Shown: positions 1 to 5,327 of the stretch, in pieces
Layout of the letters: the number at the start of each line of letters is the position of its first letter
How positions within the stretch are numbered: position 1 is the stretch's first letter
The notes under the pieces: model-generated
Database searches by the model: none
What the model was told of the DNA's origin: nothing
The model's input: the letters and a program-made list of their open reading frames with translations, nothing else
Virus record (IMG/VR): IMGVR_UViG_3300045988_031517
Location: 1-5,327 of that record
Reading direction: 5' to 3' (one strand)
Source: a virus
Length of the DNA: 5,327 nucleotides
Translations under genes and position numbers: made by a program

Positions 1-141
1 AACTTGTTGTTAATATCTCAGTAAAATTGCTTTTCTCTCCAAACGTTATATGTCACATTTAGGGTAGGCTTTGTGTCTGCCCTAATTTTAGATTAGGAGG
101 TTGTCTTGTGAATAATGATCAGCTTATGAATCAATTAACCA
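1..141. repeat. Terminal redundancy: 1-141 is identical to 5187-5327. This is the circular-genome overlap (assembly or over-extension artefact), giving a true unit length of 5186 nt.
   Basis: Direct comparison of the first 141 nt with the last 141 nt of the window, which are identical. The VP2 start codon and RBS appear in both copies (108 and 5294). Confidence 0.95.
60..90 (+). terminator. Weak hairpin (TAGGG...CCCTA, 5-bp stem) followed by ATTTTA, downstream of the VP1 stop. Possible leaky terminator after the capsid gene.
   Basis: taggg (60-64) is complementary to cccta (80-84) and is followed by a-tttt-a (85-90). The stem is short and the loop is 15 nt, so the call is weak. Confidence 0.2.
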
Positions 142-782
142 GTATTTCCGCTCAGAATACCGCGAAATCGCAAGAGTTTGCTCGCGAAGAGATGCGTTTC
201 AACGCCGCCGAGGCTCAGAAGAATCGAGATTGGCAGGCTCAGCAGTCCGGATCCGCTCATCAGCGTGAGGTGTTGGATCTTCAGAAAGCCGGACTCAATC
301 CTGTTTTGAGTGCTGGCGGCTCCGGCGCGCAGACTGGATCCGGGTCTAGCGCCTCTGGTGCAAAAGGTGATGTTGATACAAGCGTCGTTCCGGCGCTGAC
401 GTCTATCATCGTTAATCAGCAAAATAACGCTAACGCTCAGGCGATTGCTCAGATGCAGAGAGATGCTACACTGGAAGCCGCCCGGATTCAGCAGTCTACT
501 GCTTTACAGGCGGCTAACATTCAGGCCGCTGCTACTCGCTTCGCCAGCCTTAACAGCGCACAAGCGTCTCGTTACGCTTCTGATATGGGCTATGCAAGTG
601 CTAAATATTCTTCCAACAATAGTCTTACTGGTACAAAATACAGTAGTGATAAGAGTTCTTCTGCTTCTCGGTATGGCACTAAGGTCAACGCCGCCGTCCA
701 GAAACGCGGCCAGAATCTTAATCTTCTCGGCTCTCTCGTTGGCTCTGCGTCTAGCTTCTTAGGTAAGCTGTTCGGCCGCTGA
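108..782 (+). CDS. VP2: Minor capsid / DNA pilot protein VP2 (gokushovirus-type). GTG start 7-8 nt after an AGGAGG RBS.
   Basis: A 224-aa ORF rich in A/Q/S/N low-complexity sequence. It carries the conserved pilot-protein block '...EMRFNAAEAQKNRDWQ...SAHQREV.DLQKAGLNP.L' and a hydrophobic C-terminus (LLGSLVGSASSFLGKLFGR). AGGAGG lies at 95-100. Position after VP1 matches the VP4-VP5-VP3-VP1-VP2 gokushovirus synteny. Confidence 0.8.
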   Translation: MNNDQLMNQLTSISAQNTAKSQEFAREEMRFNAAEAQKNRDWQAQQSGSAHQREVLDLQKAGLNPVLSAGGSGAQTGSGSSASGAKGDVDTSVVPALTSIIVNQQNNANAQAIAQMQRDATLEAARIQQSTALQAANIQAAATRFASLNSAQASRYASDMGYASAKYSSNNSLTGTKYSSDKSSSASRYGTKVNAAVQKRGQNLNLLGSLVGSASSFLGKLFGR

Positions 783-910
783 TACCCGCTTTTTCCTTGG
801 GTGCCTGTCTCTCTGTCTAGTGGTTGCGGCCGCGTAGCGGACGGAATGCGCGGAGCGGCGGGAACCCATGGGGCGGCGGGCCGTCCGCGCAAACGGATGG
901 AGCCGATCAA
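783..910. other. GC-rich structured island between VP2 and the promoter region. It has nested inverted repeats (GCGGACGG 837-844 / CCGTCCGC 881-888), palindromes GCGGCCGC (826-833) and CCCATGGG (865-872), and direct repeats of GGCGGCGGG (854-862, 872-880).
   Basis: By eye the composition is roughly two-thirds G+C, against a moderately AT-rich genome. No plausible ORF is present: the only ORF through it is antisense and has no RBS. It is followed directly by an A8 run and an AT-rich promoter block. Confidence 0.6.
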
Positions 911-931
911 AAAAAATATTGTCGATGAGTA

Positions 932-960
932 TTGACAAAACTAATTGAATCAATTATAAT
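932..960 (+). promoter_or_regulatory. Consensus sigma70-type promoter: TTGACA (932-937), 17-nt spacer, TATAAT (955-960). Predicted TSS is around 967.
   Basis: Exact match to both consensus hexamers with the optimal 17-bp spacing, in an AT-rich block, 45 nt upstream of the 1005 ATG. Confidence 0.7.
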
Positions 961-982
961 AAATAATGTAATCAATCATAAT
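945..982 (+). promoter_or_regulatory. Two operator-like 16-bp direct repeats, TTGAATCAATTATAAT (945-960) and TGTAATCAATCATAAT (967-982), matching at 13 of 16 positions and spaced 22 bp start to start. The first overlaps the -10 element and the second overlaps the TSS.
   Basis: Alignment by eye. The 22-bp phasing is about two helical turns. Each repeat contains an imperfect palindrome ATTGAaTCAAT. This is a typical arrangement for autoregulatory HTH-repressor operators. Confidence 0.4.
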
Positions 983-1004
983 TAATAGAAAGGAATGATA
1001 AAAA

Positions 1005-1250
1005 ATGACATCCCACAATATTAGAAAATTATTAGGATTCTCGCAGAAAGATCTTGCTGATTGCTTCGGCATTCCCATTGCTACCGTCCGTAATTGGGAT
1101 TCGAAGGATTGCATGCCGGCTTATATCGTTGAAATGTTGTCTTATATTTTTACCTGCGAGAAATACAAGACTCCTCCGTGTGTGCGTTTTCTTCTCGAAA
1201 GAAAGCGTGAGGAATTGGAGGCAGAATTGGAGCCAGAATGTACCGATTAG
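1005..1250 (+). CDS. Small (81-aa) helix-turn-helix DNA-binding protein of the XRE/Cro-like family. Putative transcriptional regulator.
   Basis: ATG preceded by AAAGGA (990-995). The HTH signature 'FSQKDLADCFGIPIATVRNWDSKD' fits the XRE/Cro helix2-turn-helix3 pattern (Q.eLA..hG.s..TV.rWe.g). A perfect sigma70 promoter sits immediately upstream. The C-terminus is acidic (EELEAELEPE). Confidence 0.6.
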   Translation: MTSHNIRKLLGFSQKDLADCFGIPIATVRNWDSKDCMPAYIVEMLSYIFTCEKYKTPPCVRFLLERKREELEAELEPECTD

Positions 1251-1255
1251 CCGAC

Positions 1256-1287
1256 CAGACCAGTTACTACTTGATGTAACTGGTCTG
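1256..1287 (+). promoter_or_regulatory. Perfect 12-bp inverted repeat, CAGACCAGTTAC-tacttgat-GTAACTGGTCTG. It is a hairpin (cruciform in dsRF) and a candidate rolling-circle origin or operator.
   Basis: Reverse complement of 1256-1267 equals 1276-1287 exactly. The 8-nt loop contains ACTTGAT, which matches the phiX174 origin nick motif (CAACTTG|ATA). It lies between the HTH gene and the Rep gene. Confidence 0.45.
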
Positions 1288-1318
1288 AGTGACACAAAAA
1301 ACACAAAACAAGCTTTTT

Positions 1319-1352
1319 TGTCCGTCGTAGACGGACATTAAGAGTTTTTTTT
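1319..1352 (+). terminator. Terminator-like hairpin TGTCCGTC-gta-GACGGACA (1319-1337), flanked by T6 upstream and T8 (1345-1352) downstream. Possible terminator for the HTH-gene transcript.
   Basis: 8-bp GC-rich stem with a 3-nt loop. The T8 run begins 7 nt after the stem, which is not the ideal immediate T-tract. Confidence 0.35.
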
Positions 1353-1354
1353 AA

Positions 1355-1376
1355 GGGGGACTTGGCAGAGTCCCCC
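1355..1376 (+). promoter_or_regulatory. Hairpin GGGGGACT-tggcag-AGTCCCCC in the Rep 5' leader, ending 8 nt before the Rep Shine-Dalgarno sequence.
   Basis: Exact 8-bp inverted repeat with a 6-nt loop. AAGGAG (1385-1390) and the ATG at 1397 follow. Confidence 0.4.
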
Positions 1377-1396
1377 AGCACCGAAAGGAGTATTAT

Positions 1397-2422
1397 ATGA
1401 CCTGTTTTCACCCTCTTCGTGGTGCGTATACTAATGGTATAACAGCGAGCGGAAAAAAACAAGTGAAAGTATTTCCCACTGCTTCGACGGGAAATAAATA
1501 TGTTTATCAGAATAGAGCTAAACCAACTGTTTTCGAGTGTAGCGATCATGCGTTCGACGTTGGCACATGGAAGAAGCTTGACACGTTCTTAATTCCCTGC
1601 GGTCAGTGTGTTGGTTGCCGCTTGGACTATTCCAGACGTTGGGCAACGCGTCTGATGCTGGAGTTAGAATGCCATACGAGCGCGTTCTTCCTCACTCTCA
1701 CGTATGACGATGATCATATCGTCCGCGGTGAGAATTTAGCTTATACTCTCGTCCCCGAGGATGTGCAGTTGTTTCTTAAGCGTCTGCGGCGTGATCAGGA
1801 GTATCGCGGTATTGATGCTAAGATCCGGTTTTTCTGTGCTGGCGAATATGGTGATAAGTTCCACCGGCCGCATTATCATTTGATCGTTTATGATTGGATC
1901 CCGCCGGAAAATGATCTGCAATTCCTCAAGATGTCATTCCACGGCGACAAGTATTATACCAGCTTGTCGCTTCGAAAGCTTTGGCCTTATGGTTATAATC
2001 TGGTAACTAATGTATGCTGGAAATCTTGCGCGTATGTTGCGCGTTATATCCTCAAGAAGCAGAATGGCCACAAAGCGGATAAATACGAAGATCTTGGTAT
2101 CGAGCCTGAATTTTCGCGTATGTCGCGAAAACCCGGTATTGGTAAGGAATATTATGATCTTCATGCTAAAGAGATGCTTGATCGTGGTTACGTGCAGATG
2201 CCTGATGGCCTTAAGGCTCCGATTCCTAGGTATTTCGACCCATTTTTTGAGATGGATTTCCCCGCGGAGTATGAGAAACTCTCCGAGGATCGCGTCTTGA
2301 CCGCGAAAATGATGCAACAAGTTAAGGAATATGCCACCGATCTGGATTACTTCGAACAGCTTTTGCTTGACGAGGACGCGAAAAAATTCCGAGCTAAGAA
2401 ACTTGTAAGACCCGATATTTAA
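1397..2422 (+). CDS. VP4: Replication initiation protein VP4. A rolling-circle HUH endonuclease of the Microviridae gene A family.
   Basis: 341 aa. RCR motif 1 is FLTLTY (nt 1688-1705). HUH motif 2 is HYHLIVY (nt 1871-1891). Motif 3 has two tyrosines, YVARYILKK (nt 2033-2059), the YxxxY arrangement of phiX174 gene A-type Reps. A CGQCVGC Cys cluster lies near the N-terminus. The N-terminus 'MTCFHPL' is typical of gokushovirus VP4. The RBS is AAGGAG at 1385-1390. Confidence 0.92.
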   Translation: MTCFHPLRGAYTNGITASGKKQVKVFPTASTGNKYVYQNRAKPTVFECSDHAFDVGTWKKLDTFLIPCGQCVGCRLDYSRRWATRLMLELECHTSAFFLTLTYDDDHIVRGENLAYTLVPEDVQLFLKRLRRDQEYRGIDAKIRFFCAGEYGDKFHRPHYHLIVYDWIPPENDLQFLKMSFHGDKYYTSLSLRKLWPYGYNLVTNVCWKSCAYVARYILKKQNGHKADKYEDLGIEPEFSRMSRKPGIGKEYYDLHAKEMLDRGYVQMPDGLKAPIPRYFDPFFEMDFPAEYEKLSEDRVLTAKMMQQVKEYATDLDYFEQLLLDEDAKKFRAKKLVRPDI

Positions 2423-2435
2423 TCGGGTCTTTTTT
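2407..2435 (+). terminator. Rho-independent terminator overlapping the Rep stop codon: stem AAGACCCGAT / ATCGGGTCTT, loop ATTTA, then T6.
   Basis: 2408-2416 agacccgat is complementary to 2422-2430 atcgggtct, extendable by 2407/2431. A TTTTTT tract immediately follows. The TAA stop lies at 2420-2422 inside the loop and stem. Confidence 0.65.
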
Positions 2436-2437
2436 AG

Positions 2438-2464
2438 TTGACAATACCCCCCCCGGTATACAAT
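2438..2464 (+). promoter_or_regulatory. Candidate promoter for the VP5-ORF-VP3-VP1 block: TTGACA (2438-2443), a spacer containing a C8 homopolymer (2447-2454), then TACAAT (2459-2464).
   Basis: The -35 hexamer is perfect and the -10 (TACAAT) is good, but the spacer is only 15 nt at the current C8 length. It sits directly after the Rep terminator and 25 nt before the VP5 RBS AAGGAGG (2475-2481). Confidence 0.35.
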
Positions 2465-2488
2465 GGAAGAAAAAAGGAGGTATTAACC

Positions 2489-2602
2489 ATGGCAAAAAAA
2501 ATGAAACGTGGTCGTGATCGTTCTGTGTTTCGCAAAACCGCCGATCGCACCAAAAAACTTAACGTGAGACCATTATTATTCCGAGGAGGTATCAGACTGT
2601 GA
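2489..2602 (+). CDS. VP5: Small (37-aa) arginine/lysine-rich DNA-binding protein, the J-like/VP5-type ssDNA packaging protein of gokushoviruses.
   Basis: MAKKMKRGRDRSVFRKTADRTKKLNVRPLLFRGGIRL. It is highly basic and has the C-terminal 'RP..FRGG.RL' tail characteristic of gokushovirus small DNA-binding proteins. A strong RBS AAGGAGG sits 7 nt upstream. The six-frame ORF track missed it because of its size. Confidence 0.7.
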   Translation: MAKKMKRGRDRSVFRKTADRTKKLNVRPLLFRGGIRL

Positions 2603-2886
2603 AAGGATTACATAATCTTATCTATGCTTTGCATGATGATGTTGCCGGCAATGTGCTTCAGTATTACATCTGCCCTGATCCTGTATGGGCTGAACGTACT
2701 TTCCGGACGCTTGTCGGCCAGATTACATGTGGCACTCCGTCGGAATTCTCGTTCCGTCTGGTAGGTATGCTTGACGATCTGACTTACATTAACGCGGATG
2801 ATGTTCTTAATTCCGCGAAAGCTGACGGTATTGATTGTAAGGAGGTTATGCATGGAAGCGACTATGCACTGGAAAACAATGTATGA
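2599..2886 (+). CDS. Hypothetical 95-aa protein of unknown function (mildly acidic). Its GTG start overlaps the VP5 stop (GTGA), so it is translationally coupled.
   Basis: GAGGAGG (2583-2589) lies 9 nt upstream of the GTG at 2599. It fills what would otherwise be a 250-nt non-coding gap in a compact genome. Its 3' end overlaps the VP3 start by about 35 nt. I recognise no motif in it. Confidence 0.45.
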   Translation: MKGLHNLIYALHDDVAGNVLQYYICPDPVWAERTFRTLVGQITCGTPSEFSFRLVGMLDDLTYINADDVLNSAKADGIDCKEVMHGSDYALENNV

Positions 2887-3370
2887 TACCTTTTTCGATC
2901 CGGTGGAAGTGAGCACTTCCGCCGGAGATGAGACTCGCGCCGAGTATGTTCTGTCCGTCGGTAAGGACGGACGGAAATGTCTGTCTAAAGTGAGAGACGT
3001 AGACATCAGCGCGGAAATTAACAGCTACGCGCCTGGGTGTGATATGGCTGTGATTTTGAACAAGTTGCAGGCTGGTCTGATCCCAACTGATTACGATGAG
3101 TCTAATTGTGTTGATCTTACCGTTCTTCCAAAAGATGTGGTTGAAGCCATGCAGAAAACACGCGAGTTCCGCGATCAGTTCTCGGATTTTCCGGAAGAGG
3201 TGCAGAAGCTTTTCCAGTATGACGCTAACCTGTTTATGCAGTCGTTCATTGACGGTTCGTTGAATGATGCACTGGCTACCCTTCAGGCTCCGAAGCCTGA
3301 TCCGAAGCCTGATCCGAAGCCTGATCCGAAGCCTGATCCGAAGCCTGATCCGGAACCTAAGAAGGAGTGA
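2852..3370 (+). CDS. VP3: Internal scaffolding-like protein VP3 (172 aa from the ATG at 2852) with a C-terminal (KPDP)n low-complexity tail.
   Basis: AAGGAGG (2839-2845) lies 6 nt before the ATG at 2852. The ORF track's longer version starts at 2798 but lacks an RBS. Size and position (between VP5 and VP1) fit gokushovirus VP3. Acidic stretches, FRDQFSDFPEE, are typical of scaffold proteins. The assignment rests mainly on synteny. Confidence 0.6.
   Translation: MEATMHWKTMYDTFFDPVEVSTSAGDETRAEYVLSVGKDGRKCLSKVRDVDISAEINSYAPGCDMAVILNKLQAGLIPTDYDESNCVDLTVLPKDVVEAMQKTREFRDQFSDFPEEVQKLFQYDANLFMQSFIDGSLNDALATLQAPKPDPKPDPKPDPKPDPKPDPEPKKE
3290..3361 (+). repeat. Tandem 12-nt repeat CCGAAGCCTGAT in 5 perfect copies (3290-3349) plus a degenerate sixth, CCGGAACCTAAG. 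It encodes PKPD x5 (...KPDPKPDPKPDPKPDPKPDPEPKKE) at the VP3 C-terminus.
   Basis: Read directly from the sequence. The repeat is in frame with VP3. Confidence 0.95.
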
Positions 3371-3471
3371 TGTGTTTGGATCTTTTATGGGTTATGATTC
3401 TATTAATTATTTTCGATATCGGTCTCAATGTGGCCGTGTTGACTATGCTTGCCGGAAAGGAGTAATTATTG

Positions 3472-5178
3472 ATGGCATTTTCGAAGAATCTTATTGATTC
3501 GAATAGCTTTTTCAGCTCTTACAAGAGCGACTTGGAACGTCCCCGATCTCGTTTCGATCGAAGCAGCTCCGTTAAGACATCATTCAATGTTGGTGATCTC
3601 GTCCCGTTCTATCTTGACGAGGTTCTCCCTGGTGATACGTTCGATGTCGAGACAAGTTTTGTGACACGTCTTCAGACGCTGATCACGCCACCGATGGATG
3701 ACCTGTTTTTGGATATGTATTACTTTTTCGTTCCTTCTCGTCTCTGCTGGTCTCACTGGAAGGAGTTCATGGGCGAGTCCACTACTAGCTGGACGGCTGA
3801 TGTGACTTACCAGGTTCCGCAGTTGGTTGTAGCAGATAATGCGGCTAATAAAAAAGGTATCCAGGGATCTATTTTGGATTATCTTGGTGTTCCGATTGAC
3901 TGGTTTGGTTCGATGTCTATTTCCCGCCTTCCCATTAATGCCTATAATCTGATCTGGAACGAGTGGTTCCGTGATGAGAATTTGCAGGATGAGATTCTTG
4001 TGGATATTGATGATGGCAATGTGAATTTTGATGTCAACAATTCCGCGAAAGGTGGAAAACTGCTCAAGGTTAATAAGTTGCATGATTATTTTTCTTCTTG
4101 CCTTCCGTCTCCGCAGAAAGGCGATGATGTGACGATCTCGTCTATTTTTGGCGATCTTCCCGTCGTGACGCGGCAGAAAAACGTTGTGAGCGGTGCTCAC
4201 CCGCCTATGTCGTTTCTGCGTGATAATGGTAGTACATTTCCGGAAGCTCGTTGGCTGGCTATTAGCAGTCCGGCTACTATCCTTCCCAATCGTCCGGAAC
4301 CATTTCATAATCTTGTTGCCGGAAAGGATACGCAGGCTAGTAATGGTATTTCTGGTACCAACATTGGCTTGTTTCCGACTAACCTTGTTGCGGATCCGTC
4401 CTCCGCGGATCCTCTGACGGTTAATAGTTTGCGTTTGGCTTTCGCAACTCAGCAGATGCTCGAGACTGACGCTCGTTCCGGTTCTCGTTATGTCGAGCTT
4501 CTTCGCGGTCATTTCGGCGTGATTTCCCCCGACGGTCGCTTACAGCGTCCGGAGCTTCTGAGTGCTAACCGTACTCGGATCAACGTCCATCAGATTGTTC
4601 AGCAGTCCGAGACGGCATCAACTCCGCTTGGTACTACTGCGGCCATGTCTCTTACAAATAATACAGACAATAGTTTCGTTAAGTCCTTCACGGAGCACGG
4701 TTTCGTTATCGGTGTCATGTGCGCTCGCTATAATCACACCTATCAGCAGGGTATCAACCGTCTTTGGTCTCGTAAGGATCGACTGGACTATTATTTCCCG
4801 ATTCTCGCAAATATCGGAGAACAGCCAGTTTATACGAAGGAGTTGTACGCTAAAAGTCTAAACGAGGTTGGTAATCCAGATGGTGGAGTATTCGGTTATC
4901 AGGAAGCTTGGGCTGATTATCGCTACAAGCCGTCTCAGGTCACTGGTGAGATGCGTTCTGGTATCACCAACTCTTTGCAGTCCTGGCATTTCGCCGACTA
5001 TTACCAGAATAAGCCTACACTGAGTTCCGGTTGGATCCAAGAGGATCTGTCCAACGTTGATCGTACACTTGCGGTCACGTCTAAGCTCGCGAATCAGATT
5101 TTTGGAGATTTCTATGTTAAGAATCTGACCACTCGTGTAATGCCGGTTCACAGTATCCCGGGCTTAAGAAAACTGTAA
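3472..5178 (+). CDS. VP1: Major capsid protein VP1 (F-like) of Gokushovirinae. The ATG at 3472 lies 9 nt after AAGGAG. The ORF track's first codon is an in-frame TTG at 3469.
   Basis: 568 aa. The N-terminal block 'RSRFDRSSSVKTSFNVGDLVPFYLDEVLPGDTF' matches the conserved gokushovirus VP1 N-terminus (SFDRS...KTTF..G.L.P...DEVLPGDTF). Its size and large central insertion are typical of gokushovirus capsid proteins. Confidence 0.92.
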   Translation: MAFSKNLIDSNSFFSSYKSDLERPRSRFDRSSSVKTSFNVGDLVPFYLDEVLPGDTFDVETSFVTRLQTLITPPMDDLFLDMYYFFVPSRLCWSHWKEFMGESTTSWTADVTYQVPQLVVADNAANKKGIQGSILDYLGVPIDWFGSMSISRLPINAYNLIWNEWFRDENLQDEILVDIDDGNVNFDVNNSAKGGKLLKVNKLHDYFSSCLPSPQKGDDVTISSIFGDLPVVTRQKNVVSGAHPPMSFLRDNGSTFPEARWLAISSPATILPNRPEPFHNLVAGKDTQASNGISGTNIGLFPTNLVADPSSADPLTVNSLRLAFATQQMLETDARSGSRYVELLRGHFGVISPDGRLQRPELLSANRTRINVHQIVQQSETASTPLGTTAAMSLTNNTDNSFVKSFTEHGFVIGVMCARYNHTYQQGINRLWSRKDRLDYYFPILANIGEQPVYTKELYAKSLNEVGNPDGGVFGYQEAWADYRYKPSQVTGEMRSGITNSLQSWHFADYYQNKPTLSSGWIQEDLSNVDRTLAVTSKLANQIFGDFYVKNLTTRVMPVHSIPGLRKL

Positions 5179-5293
5179 TATATTGTAACTTGTTGTTAAT
5201 ATCTCAGTAAAATTGCTTTTCTCTCCAAACGTTATATGTCACATTTAGGGTAGGCTTTGTGTCTGCCCTAATTTTAGATTAGGAGGTTGTCTT

Positions 5294-5327
5294 GTGAATA
5301 ATGATCAGCTTATGAATCAATTAACCA
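5294..5327 (+). CDS. VP2: Duplicate of the VP2 5' end (GTG start at 5294) inside the terminal redundancy. This is the same gene as 108-782, not a second copy.
   Basis: Sequence identity with 108-141. Confidence 0.9.
   Translation, partial: MNNDQLMNQLT

Follow-up and report, generated by a model that had tools for sequence, protein, structure and literature searches.

A putative XRE-type autorepressor cassette upstream of the rolling-circle initiator gene in a gokushovirus-like genome

In the copG-repB region of plasmid pMV158, the gene of a small autorepressor comes first behind a single strong promoter and is followed by that of the rolling-circle initiator, and the operator overlaps the promoter. 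RstR, an XRE-type repressor of the filamentous single-stranded DNA (ssDNA) phage CTXphi, controls the promoter of the rolling-circle initiator gene of that phage. The C proteins and the Aca repressors are XRE-type helix-turn-helix (HTH) proteins of 70-120 amino acids (aa) that damp their own strong operon promoter through tandem sites over -35, -10 and +1. Microviruses, for their part, are regarded as minimal phages in which expression is set by constitutive promoters and terminators. Here we analyse a virus record of 5,327 nucleotides (nt), IMGVR_UViG_3300045988_031517 of IMG/VR (positions 1 to 5,327; the whole stretch is hereafter the window), in which a small HTH gene lies directly upstream of the rolling-circle initiator gene Rep. 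A conserved gene for a DNA-binding regulator, with its own promoter and operator-like sites, is unusual for the microvirus family. The reading we favour, with a probability of roughly 60%, is that the locus represents an XRE autorepressor cassette that would head an early HTH-Rep operon and hold it under negative feedback.

Under this reading, some 470 nt (roughly 783-1250) would have been inserted as an accessory cassette between VP2 and the origin/Rep region of a gut gokushovirus-like phage, bringing with them a consensus sigma-70/sigma-A promoter (P1), a pair of operator-like sites and the gene of a small HTH protein of the XRE family. Once the incoming ssDNA had been made double-stranded, P1 would fire strongly. 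The transcript would encode the HTH protein, pass through the origin hairpin into Rep and end at a terminator at 2407-2431. The HTH protein, presumably as a dimer, would then occupy site 1, in the spacer and -10, and site 2, at the start site two helical turns away. The bound protein would close P1 and thereby exert negative feedback on its own level and on the dose of Rep.

In its action such a cassette would recall copG-repB, the C and Aca loops and the control of rstA by RstR alike, though it falls in none of these families. As with copG-repB, a rolling-circle Rep follows immediately on the strand of the small gene, whose promoter contains operator-like sites, and members of the HTH family also occur beside the plasmid initiators Rep_1 and Rep_trans. 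The succession on one strand of promoter, small repressor gene and rolling-circle rep is that of a cop-rep unit. However, CopG is a ribbon-helix-helix protein, whereas an XRE helix-turn-helix is predicted here, and this all-helical fold makes the HTH protein an analogue and not a member of the CopG family. Unlike copG-repB, moreover, the locus belongs to a virus, has its origin placed between HTH gene and Rep and showed no antisense RNA partner. As for the C and Aca proteins, C.BclI, C.Esp1396I, Aca1 and Aca2 are among the structures nearest to the model of the HTH protein, but the operon partner is Rep in the present case, no membership is detectable at the sequence level and the operator sequences are unrelated. 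The cassette appears to be a regulator of a known kind in an unexpected host, and apparently mobile between microviruses and Firmicute plasmids.

The HTH protein (81 aa) is encoded on the plus strand at 1005-1250, between VP2 (108-782) and Rep (1397-2422). Its open reading frame (ORF) is preceded by a ribosome-binding site, AAAGGA (989-994, plus strand), located 10 nt 5′ of the ATG and kept in relatives as GAAAGGAG/A. Ten close homologues, 73-93% identical, were found on metagenomic contigs of up to ~5.3 kb, and those contigs that are full length (5.1-5.3 kb) have the same gene order as this genome. Pairwise ratios of nonsynonymous to synonymous substitution rates (dN/dS) among the close homologues are 0.03-0.1, for dS values of 0.4-1.8. 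The ORF is therefore a real gene under strong purifying selection, and its identity as an HTH gene is almost certain. Residues 1-50 are almost invariant in the close homologues and the C-terminal third is variable.

The protein matches Pfam family PF07022 (Phage_CI_repr) with 23.5 bits against a gathering cut-off of 22 (E 7e-5), that is, by a margin of 1.5 bits. PF01381 scored 16 against a cut-off of 23, yet this domain is recorded for five of the strong family matches. HTH_3, MerR, Xre-like-HTH and other HTH families were matched below their cut-offs, and all NCBIfam matches fell below threshold. An AlphaFold2 model built from a 70-sequence alignment, with a mean predicted local distance difference test score (pLDDT) of 91.9, displays a compact five-helix fold (residues 4-10, 14-21, 25-34, 39-53 and 60-74) in which helices 2-3, residues ~14-34, form the HTH. 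It replaced a first model made with 10 sequences (pLDDT 74), for which the list of neighbours in the Protein Data Bank (PDB) was similar. Among the 50 nearest PDB chains listed by Foldseek, nearly all are XRE-type HTH proteins; the top matches are the P2 C repressor (probability 0.97), HigA2, ImmR, C.BclI, Aca2, HipB, SinR and P22 c2. A sequence search of the PDB with the family profile returned nothing significant, the best E-value being 0.037. The profile match, the selection on the gene and the five-helix model bear out the 81-aa XRE/Cro-type HTH protein between VP2 and VP4 (Rep) that an initial annotation, made from the sequence alone, had proposed. The antitoxin-like repressor suggested in the same annotation was abandoned: the neighbours of the HTH gene are VP2 and Rep, with no toxin-like ORF next to it, so that a role of the HigA, MqsA or HipB type would lack its partner. 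The acidic C-terminal tail of the protein is encoded by a 12-nt tandem repeat (GAATTGGAGCCA, 2.3 copies, 1212-1239). In L017 (3713-3949) this repeat is expanded and rearranged and the stop comes earlier; P0009 represents a frameshifted variant. Repeat slippage drives the evolution of the tail, with the HTH domain fixed.

Promoter P1 (932-960, plus strand) is made of a -35 TTGACA at 932-937, a 17-nt spacer and a -10 TATAAT at 955-960. As already stated in the initial annotation it is perfect, and it is the sole 12/12 match to TTGACA-N17-TATAAT in the genome. A perfect promoter arose by chance in 4 of 2000 first-order Markov randomisations, which preserve dinucleotide frequencies. P1 overlaps a 22-nt direct repeat (939-960 and 961-982, 82% identical), which corresponds to the two 16-bp repeats of the annotation: the repeat is real and is better described as 22 nt. 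A half-palindrome had been assigned to each copy; the full palindrome is found in the first copy only, where it is longer than had been described. This is site 1, the putative operator (942-956), a perfect 7-1-7 (15-bp) palindrome, TAATTGAATCAATTA, which fills the spacer of P1 and overlaps the first two bases of the -10. Site 2, a putative second operator (964-978, TAATGTAATCAATCA), agrees with site 1 at 12 of 15 positions and shares only AATCAAT of its palindrome. It is located 4-18 nt past the -10 and spans the expected transcription start, its centre lying 22 bp from that of site 1. In the whole genome AATCAAT occurs five times on both strands, compared to 1.3 expected. Two further copies were considered as extra operators and rejected: synonymous changes break the copy at 128-137 (VP2 start) in relatives, and conserved Ile-Asp codons explain that at 3493-3499 (VP1 start).

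Conservation was quantified as mean pairwise identity among 10 close relatives. The -10 (955-960) reaches 100%, site 2 (964-978) 98.7%, the -35 (932-937) 96.7% and site 1 (942-956) 90.8%. The third codon (synonymous) positions of the HTH gene are at 77%, the spacer bases before site 1 (938-941) at 69% and bases 979-992 at 72%. Among the non-coding stretches of these relatives, the -10 alone exceeds site 2. P1 is also retained in L001, L021 and L041, the flanks of which are unalignable. TTGACA, the motif [CT][TG]ATTGAATCA[AG]T and TATAAT all persist in L021, L041 and Dulem virus 137, again with unalignable flanks; Dulem virus 137 carries site 1 only, without site 2.

Microviruses L026 and L045 have TATAATGTAATCAAT, and in both ATAATGTAATCAAT recurs at the -10, in support of site 2. 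Other members of the family carry an alternative palindrome at this position. This palindrome, ATGT-N5-ACAT (mostly ATGTT-N3-AACAT), lies just past the -10 and 31-34 nt before the ATG in the Rep_trans element L030, the Rep_1 element L032 and microviruses L025, L042 and L043; in the integrase/ParA element L028 it is placed further upstream. It was counted 7 times in 1,891 nt upstream of family genes versus 8 times in 62,362 nt elsewhere. A motif that is fixed in position and whose sequence changes with the protein is the pattern that autoregulators show. Residue 13 tracks the type of operator, being Ser with AATCAAT and Thr with ATGTT-N3-AACAT; as the lineages are not independent, this correlation is suggestive only. 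The conserved operator-like sites lie where a repressor would block RNA polymerase, and for this reason the autoregulated-repressor architecture put forward in the initial annotation stands, reinforced by the comparative data. Autoregulation of the HTH protein at P1 is accordingly a claim we put well above even odds, although DNA binding, repression and co-transcription with Rep are all inferred.

In every microvirus that carries the HTH gene, this gene is directly upstream of Rep on the same strand. The gap between the two is ~20-30 nt in L024, L026 and L046 and 146 nt in this genome, where it contains three strong hairpins (fold z-score -6.9 for 1248-1396). The first (1256-1287, plus strand) has a 12-bp stem and the loop TACTTGAT. 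The loop includes ACTTGAT, the 7-mer that surrounds the origin nick annotated in phiX174, AACTTG^ATAT. This hairpin is 93-98% identical in otherwise unrelated microviruses (also L002 2759-2800 and L003 2671-2716), is always upstream of Rep in the microviruses compared and is probably a widely conserved gokushovirus viral-strand origin. The two further conserved hairpins (1320-1336 and 1355-1376, plus strand) show compensatory changes in relatives. None of the three is followed by a conserved T-run in relatives, and no promoter-like or terminator-like sites were called from 1250 to 1397. Where Rep ends, an intrinsic-terminator-like hairpin with a T-run (2407-2431, plus strand) is conserved in relatives and is the proposed end of the P1 unit. 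Given the linkage to Rep, the interval free of promoter and terminator sites and the terminator after Rep, we infer an early HTH-origin-Rep unit from P1 to 2431, of which Rep (PF23343, REP_ORF2-G2P, E 3e-20) would be the second gene. Co-regulation of Rep by the HTH protein, which would go with such a unit, falls a little short of even odds in our estimate.

The neighbourhood of the origin also bears on a different function, that of a DNA-binding accessory factor for replication or packaging, which would act on the origin region or the genome and have no role as a transcription factor. The HTH gene does adjoin the origin hairpin and accompanies Reps of several rolling-circle families, and the protein weakly matches small terminase subunits (Nu1) in their HTH domains. 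However, the terminase-type matches are all below threshold, for which reason packaging was rejected, and XRE matches dominate. Moreover, the conserved repeated motifs sit in the promoter and not at the origin, and the origin hairpin is conserved equally in phages without the HTH gene. We regard such a function as very improbable. In L024 and L046 the order is different, with the origin hairpin ahead of the HTH gene; a sigma-70-like promoter is not apparent by eye at these loci, which were not scanned. About 150 nt upstream of the HTH gene, both carry an 8-5-8 palindrome, AGTTATCC-N5-GGATAACT, that resembles back-to-back DnaA-box-like motifs. The same palindrome is kept upstream of Rep in L055, from which the HTH gene is absent.

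Three relatives with a Rep 74-75% identical to that of the window (L051, L052 and L055) pass directly from the VP2 stop to the origin hairpin, with neither the HTH gene nor a promoter-like site in their VP2-Rep spacer. Since the relatives without the gene are also without the promoter, the promoter, operators and gene have been gained or lost as one unit, approximately 783-1250. This is the opposite of an ORF lost with its promoter kept, which the initial annotation had held to suggest a promoter serving Rep. On the evidence of these comparisons, the promoter-operator-HTH unit behaves as a mobile cassette. Related phages carry cassettes of two types, A and B, with a common junction and -35 (GGATAATGTATTGACAT) and different operator and protein types, a variation reminiscent of heteroimmune variants. 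Repressor and operator regions likewise diverge between otherwise similar CTXphi phages.

Such behaviour could also be that of a self-contained mobile cassette in which P1 is autoregulated, Rep is not meaningfully controlled and the useful targets lie elsewhere, in host genes or in the equivalent promoters of competing phages or plasmids, with an immunity or exclusion function. Gain and loss as a unit, the functioning of Rep without the cassette in L051, L052 and L055 and the two operator/protein types of close phages would all agree with it, as would the three hairpins that separate the HTH gene from Rep and the presence of the family cassette on a RepL plasmid-like contig without microvirus genes (L041). 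Against this, a rolling-circle Rep adjoins the HTH gene in every microvirus carrier and also in L030 and L032, and the interval between HTH gene and Rep is without a conserved terminator. Moreover, the additional AATCAAT copies close to the start of VP2 and of VP1 are no better conserved than their codons demand. On balance we find a cassette of this kind unlikely.

At its left end the cassette carries a GC-rich double hairpin (824-891, plus strand; 824-846 and 847-891) with 71% G+C in a genome of 46%. Across relatives 92% of cells are paired, versus 27-45% with the partners slid, and four pairs change on both sides. The mean pairwise identity of the block is 92%, and a 20-nt loop, GGGAACCCATGGGGCGGCGG, is invariant. 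The fold energy is not unusual (z -0.85), so it is covariation that supports the structure. The block is limited to the subclade of this genome; Dulem virus 137 and the type B relatives do not have it. An Rfam scan of the whole genome at E up to 1 returned only a chance Trp-leader match, so that neither the GC-rich block nor the hairpins are accounted for by any known RNA family. The block could be a candidate complementary-strand origin or another structured ssDNA/RNA element.

Several observations weigh against an autorepressor heading an HTH-Rep operon. Perfect palindromes of the size of site 1 are within chance expectation (3 seen for 1.6 expected); the weight of site 1 thus comes from its position and conservation, not from its rarity. 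Site 2 is a poor palindrome, and recognition of an inverted or of a direct repeat are both possible. The recognition helix (IATVRNWDS) is almost identical in proteins with differing upstream sites. The Foldseek E-values are not significant (0.12 or worse), a weakness that goes with the small size of the domain. The relatives without the HTH gene express Rep without P1, hence Rep does not strictly need this promoter. Finally, the three hairpins between the HTH gene and Rep could attenuate read-through.

A profile search of 1.84 billion cluster representatives collected 342 proteins at E up to 1e-3, 49 of them at E up to 1e-10. This HTH family is uncharacterised. Its members are mostly 60-100 aa long and have the common motif IP-x-x-TV-[RK]-NWD-[SA]-[RK]-x-CMP-x-Y. 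In a set of 5.8 billion proteins, every match at E below 1e-17 is on a contig shorter than 8 kb; after a gap, the next-best relatives are Lachnospiraceae XRE regulators of ~155 aa (E around 1e-5). The best match among phage protein families is PHROG 8898 (E 1.5e-5), and three different family queries against 50,697 GenBank phage records found a clear homologue only in Dulem virus 137. The latter, XCD04540.1, is annotated as hypothetical, and is 63% identical over residues 1-49; its gene, like the one described here, lies between VP2 (pilot) and Rep. Neither it nor PHROG 8898 is functionally annotated. The family profile also matched large proteins (P0012, 525 aa; P0022, 611 aa; P0024; P0038) with 5-8 tandem XRE-HTH units (…TQ..LA..L.VS..TVS.WE.G…) joined by acidic linkers, an unusual architecture unrelated to the phage.

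Outside microviruses, family members are encoded beside Rep_1 (L032), beside Rep_trans and integrases (L030) and beside an integrase and ParA (L028), in addition to the RepL contig L041. Among the PLSDB plasmids, the single match was a weak one, DUF1870, in Zymomonas, and the Rep_1-linked member had none. That the cassette also occurs on plasmid-like contigs of the RepL, Rep_1 and Rep_trans kinds indicates exchange with plasmids of Firmicutes and hints at a host of the Clostridia type. The module might thus be a mobile copy-control or immunity device, exchanged among microviruses and small Firmicute rolling-circle/RepL plasmids in at least two specificities, that throttles Rep so as to permit plasmid-like carrier persistence and/or the exclusion of phages with the same operator. 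We offer this wider proposal as speculative, with the odds clearly against it. If true, the module would be the first dedicated gene-regulatory circuit in Microviridae and a counter-example to the view of microviruses as genetically cut off from other mobile elements. A promoter-operator-repressor unit before Rep would add a layer of feedback to replication control. In the literature on Microviridae we found no description of an HTH/XRE transcription factor, repressor or regulator, in keeping with the statement of the initial annotation that none are known in this family. As accessory genes, a global survey of microviruses lists only those of the methyltransferase and lysis types, besides numerous small proteins without assigned function, and it finds gene exchange with other elements to be slight or absent (PMC9239249).

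Another possibility raised in the initial annotation was that of a Cro/CI-like switch serving lysogeny or prophage maintenance. In its broader form, the HTH protein would be a lysogeny, prophage-maintenance or carrier-state repressor that silences Rep while the phage is integrated or plasmid-like. The DNA-binding fold predicted here is the same as in lambdoid Cro/CI and in P2 C, the best Pfam match is to a phage CI repressor HTH (PF07022) and the top structural match is the P2 C immunity repressor. RstR, which represses the replication gene rstA in CTXphi, is matched weakly as well, at 16.7 bits against a cut-off of 80 for NF041951. Distant VP1 relatives, 39-47% identical, are integrated beside tyrosine recombinases in contigs of Clostridia metagenome-assembled genomes, and VP1 relatives are integrated in Spiroplasma too. 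Gokushoviruses can persist as circular DNA in surviving cells (PMC7062461). However, the window has a single HTH gene and all of its genes are on the plus strand, so that no pair of antagonistic repressors on divergent promoters exists. Unlike in the Cro/CI and P2 C systems, a partner repressor, a cleavage/oligomerisation domain and integration machinery are lacking, and no integrase domain is found among the Pfam matches of the genome's proteins. In CTXphi rstR is divergent and the phage integrates at dif, whereas the HTH gene has the orientation of Rep and neither a dif-like site nor integrated copies were found. The genome holds no dif-like site at up to 3 mismatches to a consensus that may differ from the dif of the host, and a search with a 13-sequence alignment found no family member in the genomes of 185,579 species, one genome each. 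The restriction of strong family matches to contigs below 8 kb tells in the same direction, as does the absence of the HTH gene from the two integrated Clostridia relatives examined, L035 and L036. Moreover, a repressor made from its own repressed promoter would give homeostasis and not a bistable switch. A lysogeny or carrier-state function is consequently quite unlikely in our view, and the switch of the initial annotation is not upheld. Its statement that enterogokushoviruses carry variable cargo between VP2 and VP4 was likewise overstated: variation is described near the VP2 C-terminus, in a non-coding VP8-VP2 region and within VP1, together with a dif motif and dif-mediated integration, and no cargo genes are reported (PMC7062461). 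Because of the PF07022 match, automatic pipelines would call this phage temperate despite the lack of integration machinery; one published method treats PF07022 as a lysogeny marker (PMC12323421). The gokushovirus-like prophages at L035 3700-8500 and L036 5700-10800 (VP1 39-46% identical, on contigs of 38 kb and 176 kb) adjoin a tyrosine recombinase and carry a holin-like gene. In L035 the next genes are lexA and that of a YgjP-like peptidase.

The record has a terminal repeat (1-152 = 5176-5327), which gives a circular genome of ~5,175 nt. Its circularity, its size of ~5 kb and the presence of a Phage_F capsid, a Chlamy_scaf scaffold and a REP_ORF2-G2P initiator identify it as gokushovirus-like. 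No close relative of the genome was found among GenBank phages at the DNA level, and PADLOC gave no meaningful match. Besides VP2/pilot, the HTH gene and Rep, the plus strand encodes a basic protein of 37 aa (2489-2602), a VP5-like ORF, the scaffold protein (Chlamy_scaf), a 32-aa hydrophobic ORF and VP1 (Phage_F, E 1e-143). The C-terminus of the scaffold protein is encoded by a perfect 12-nt tandem repeat (3289-3352, 5.3 copies) that specifies (PDPK)n. The strongly hydrophobic 32-aa ORF (3367-3465, MMCLDLLWVMILLIIFDIGLNVAVLTMLAGKE) separates the scaffold gene from VP1 and may encode a membrane or lysis peptide; it has its counterpart in a 31-aa gene called in relatives L006 and L010. Between the Rep terminator and the structural genes, a second promoter-like element, TTGACA-ATA-C8-GG-TATACAAT (2438-2464), is kept even in the distant clade members L001, L025 and L026. 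Among relatives, the run of C in its spacer is 7 to 9 long, which would give spacer lengths of 14-16. Such variation might adjust late-gene expression or be an artefact of homopolymer sequencing.

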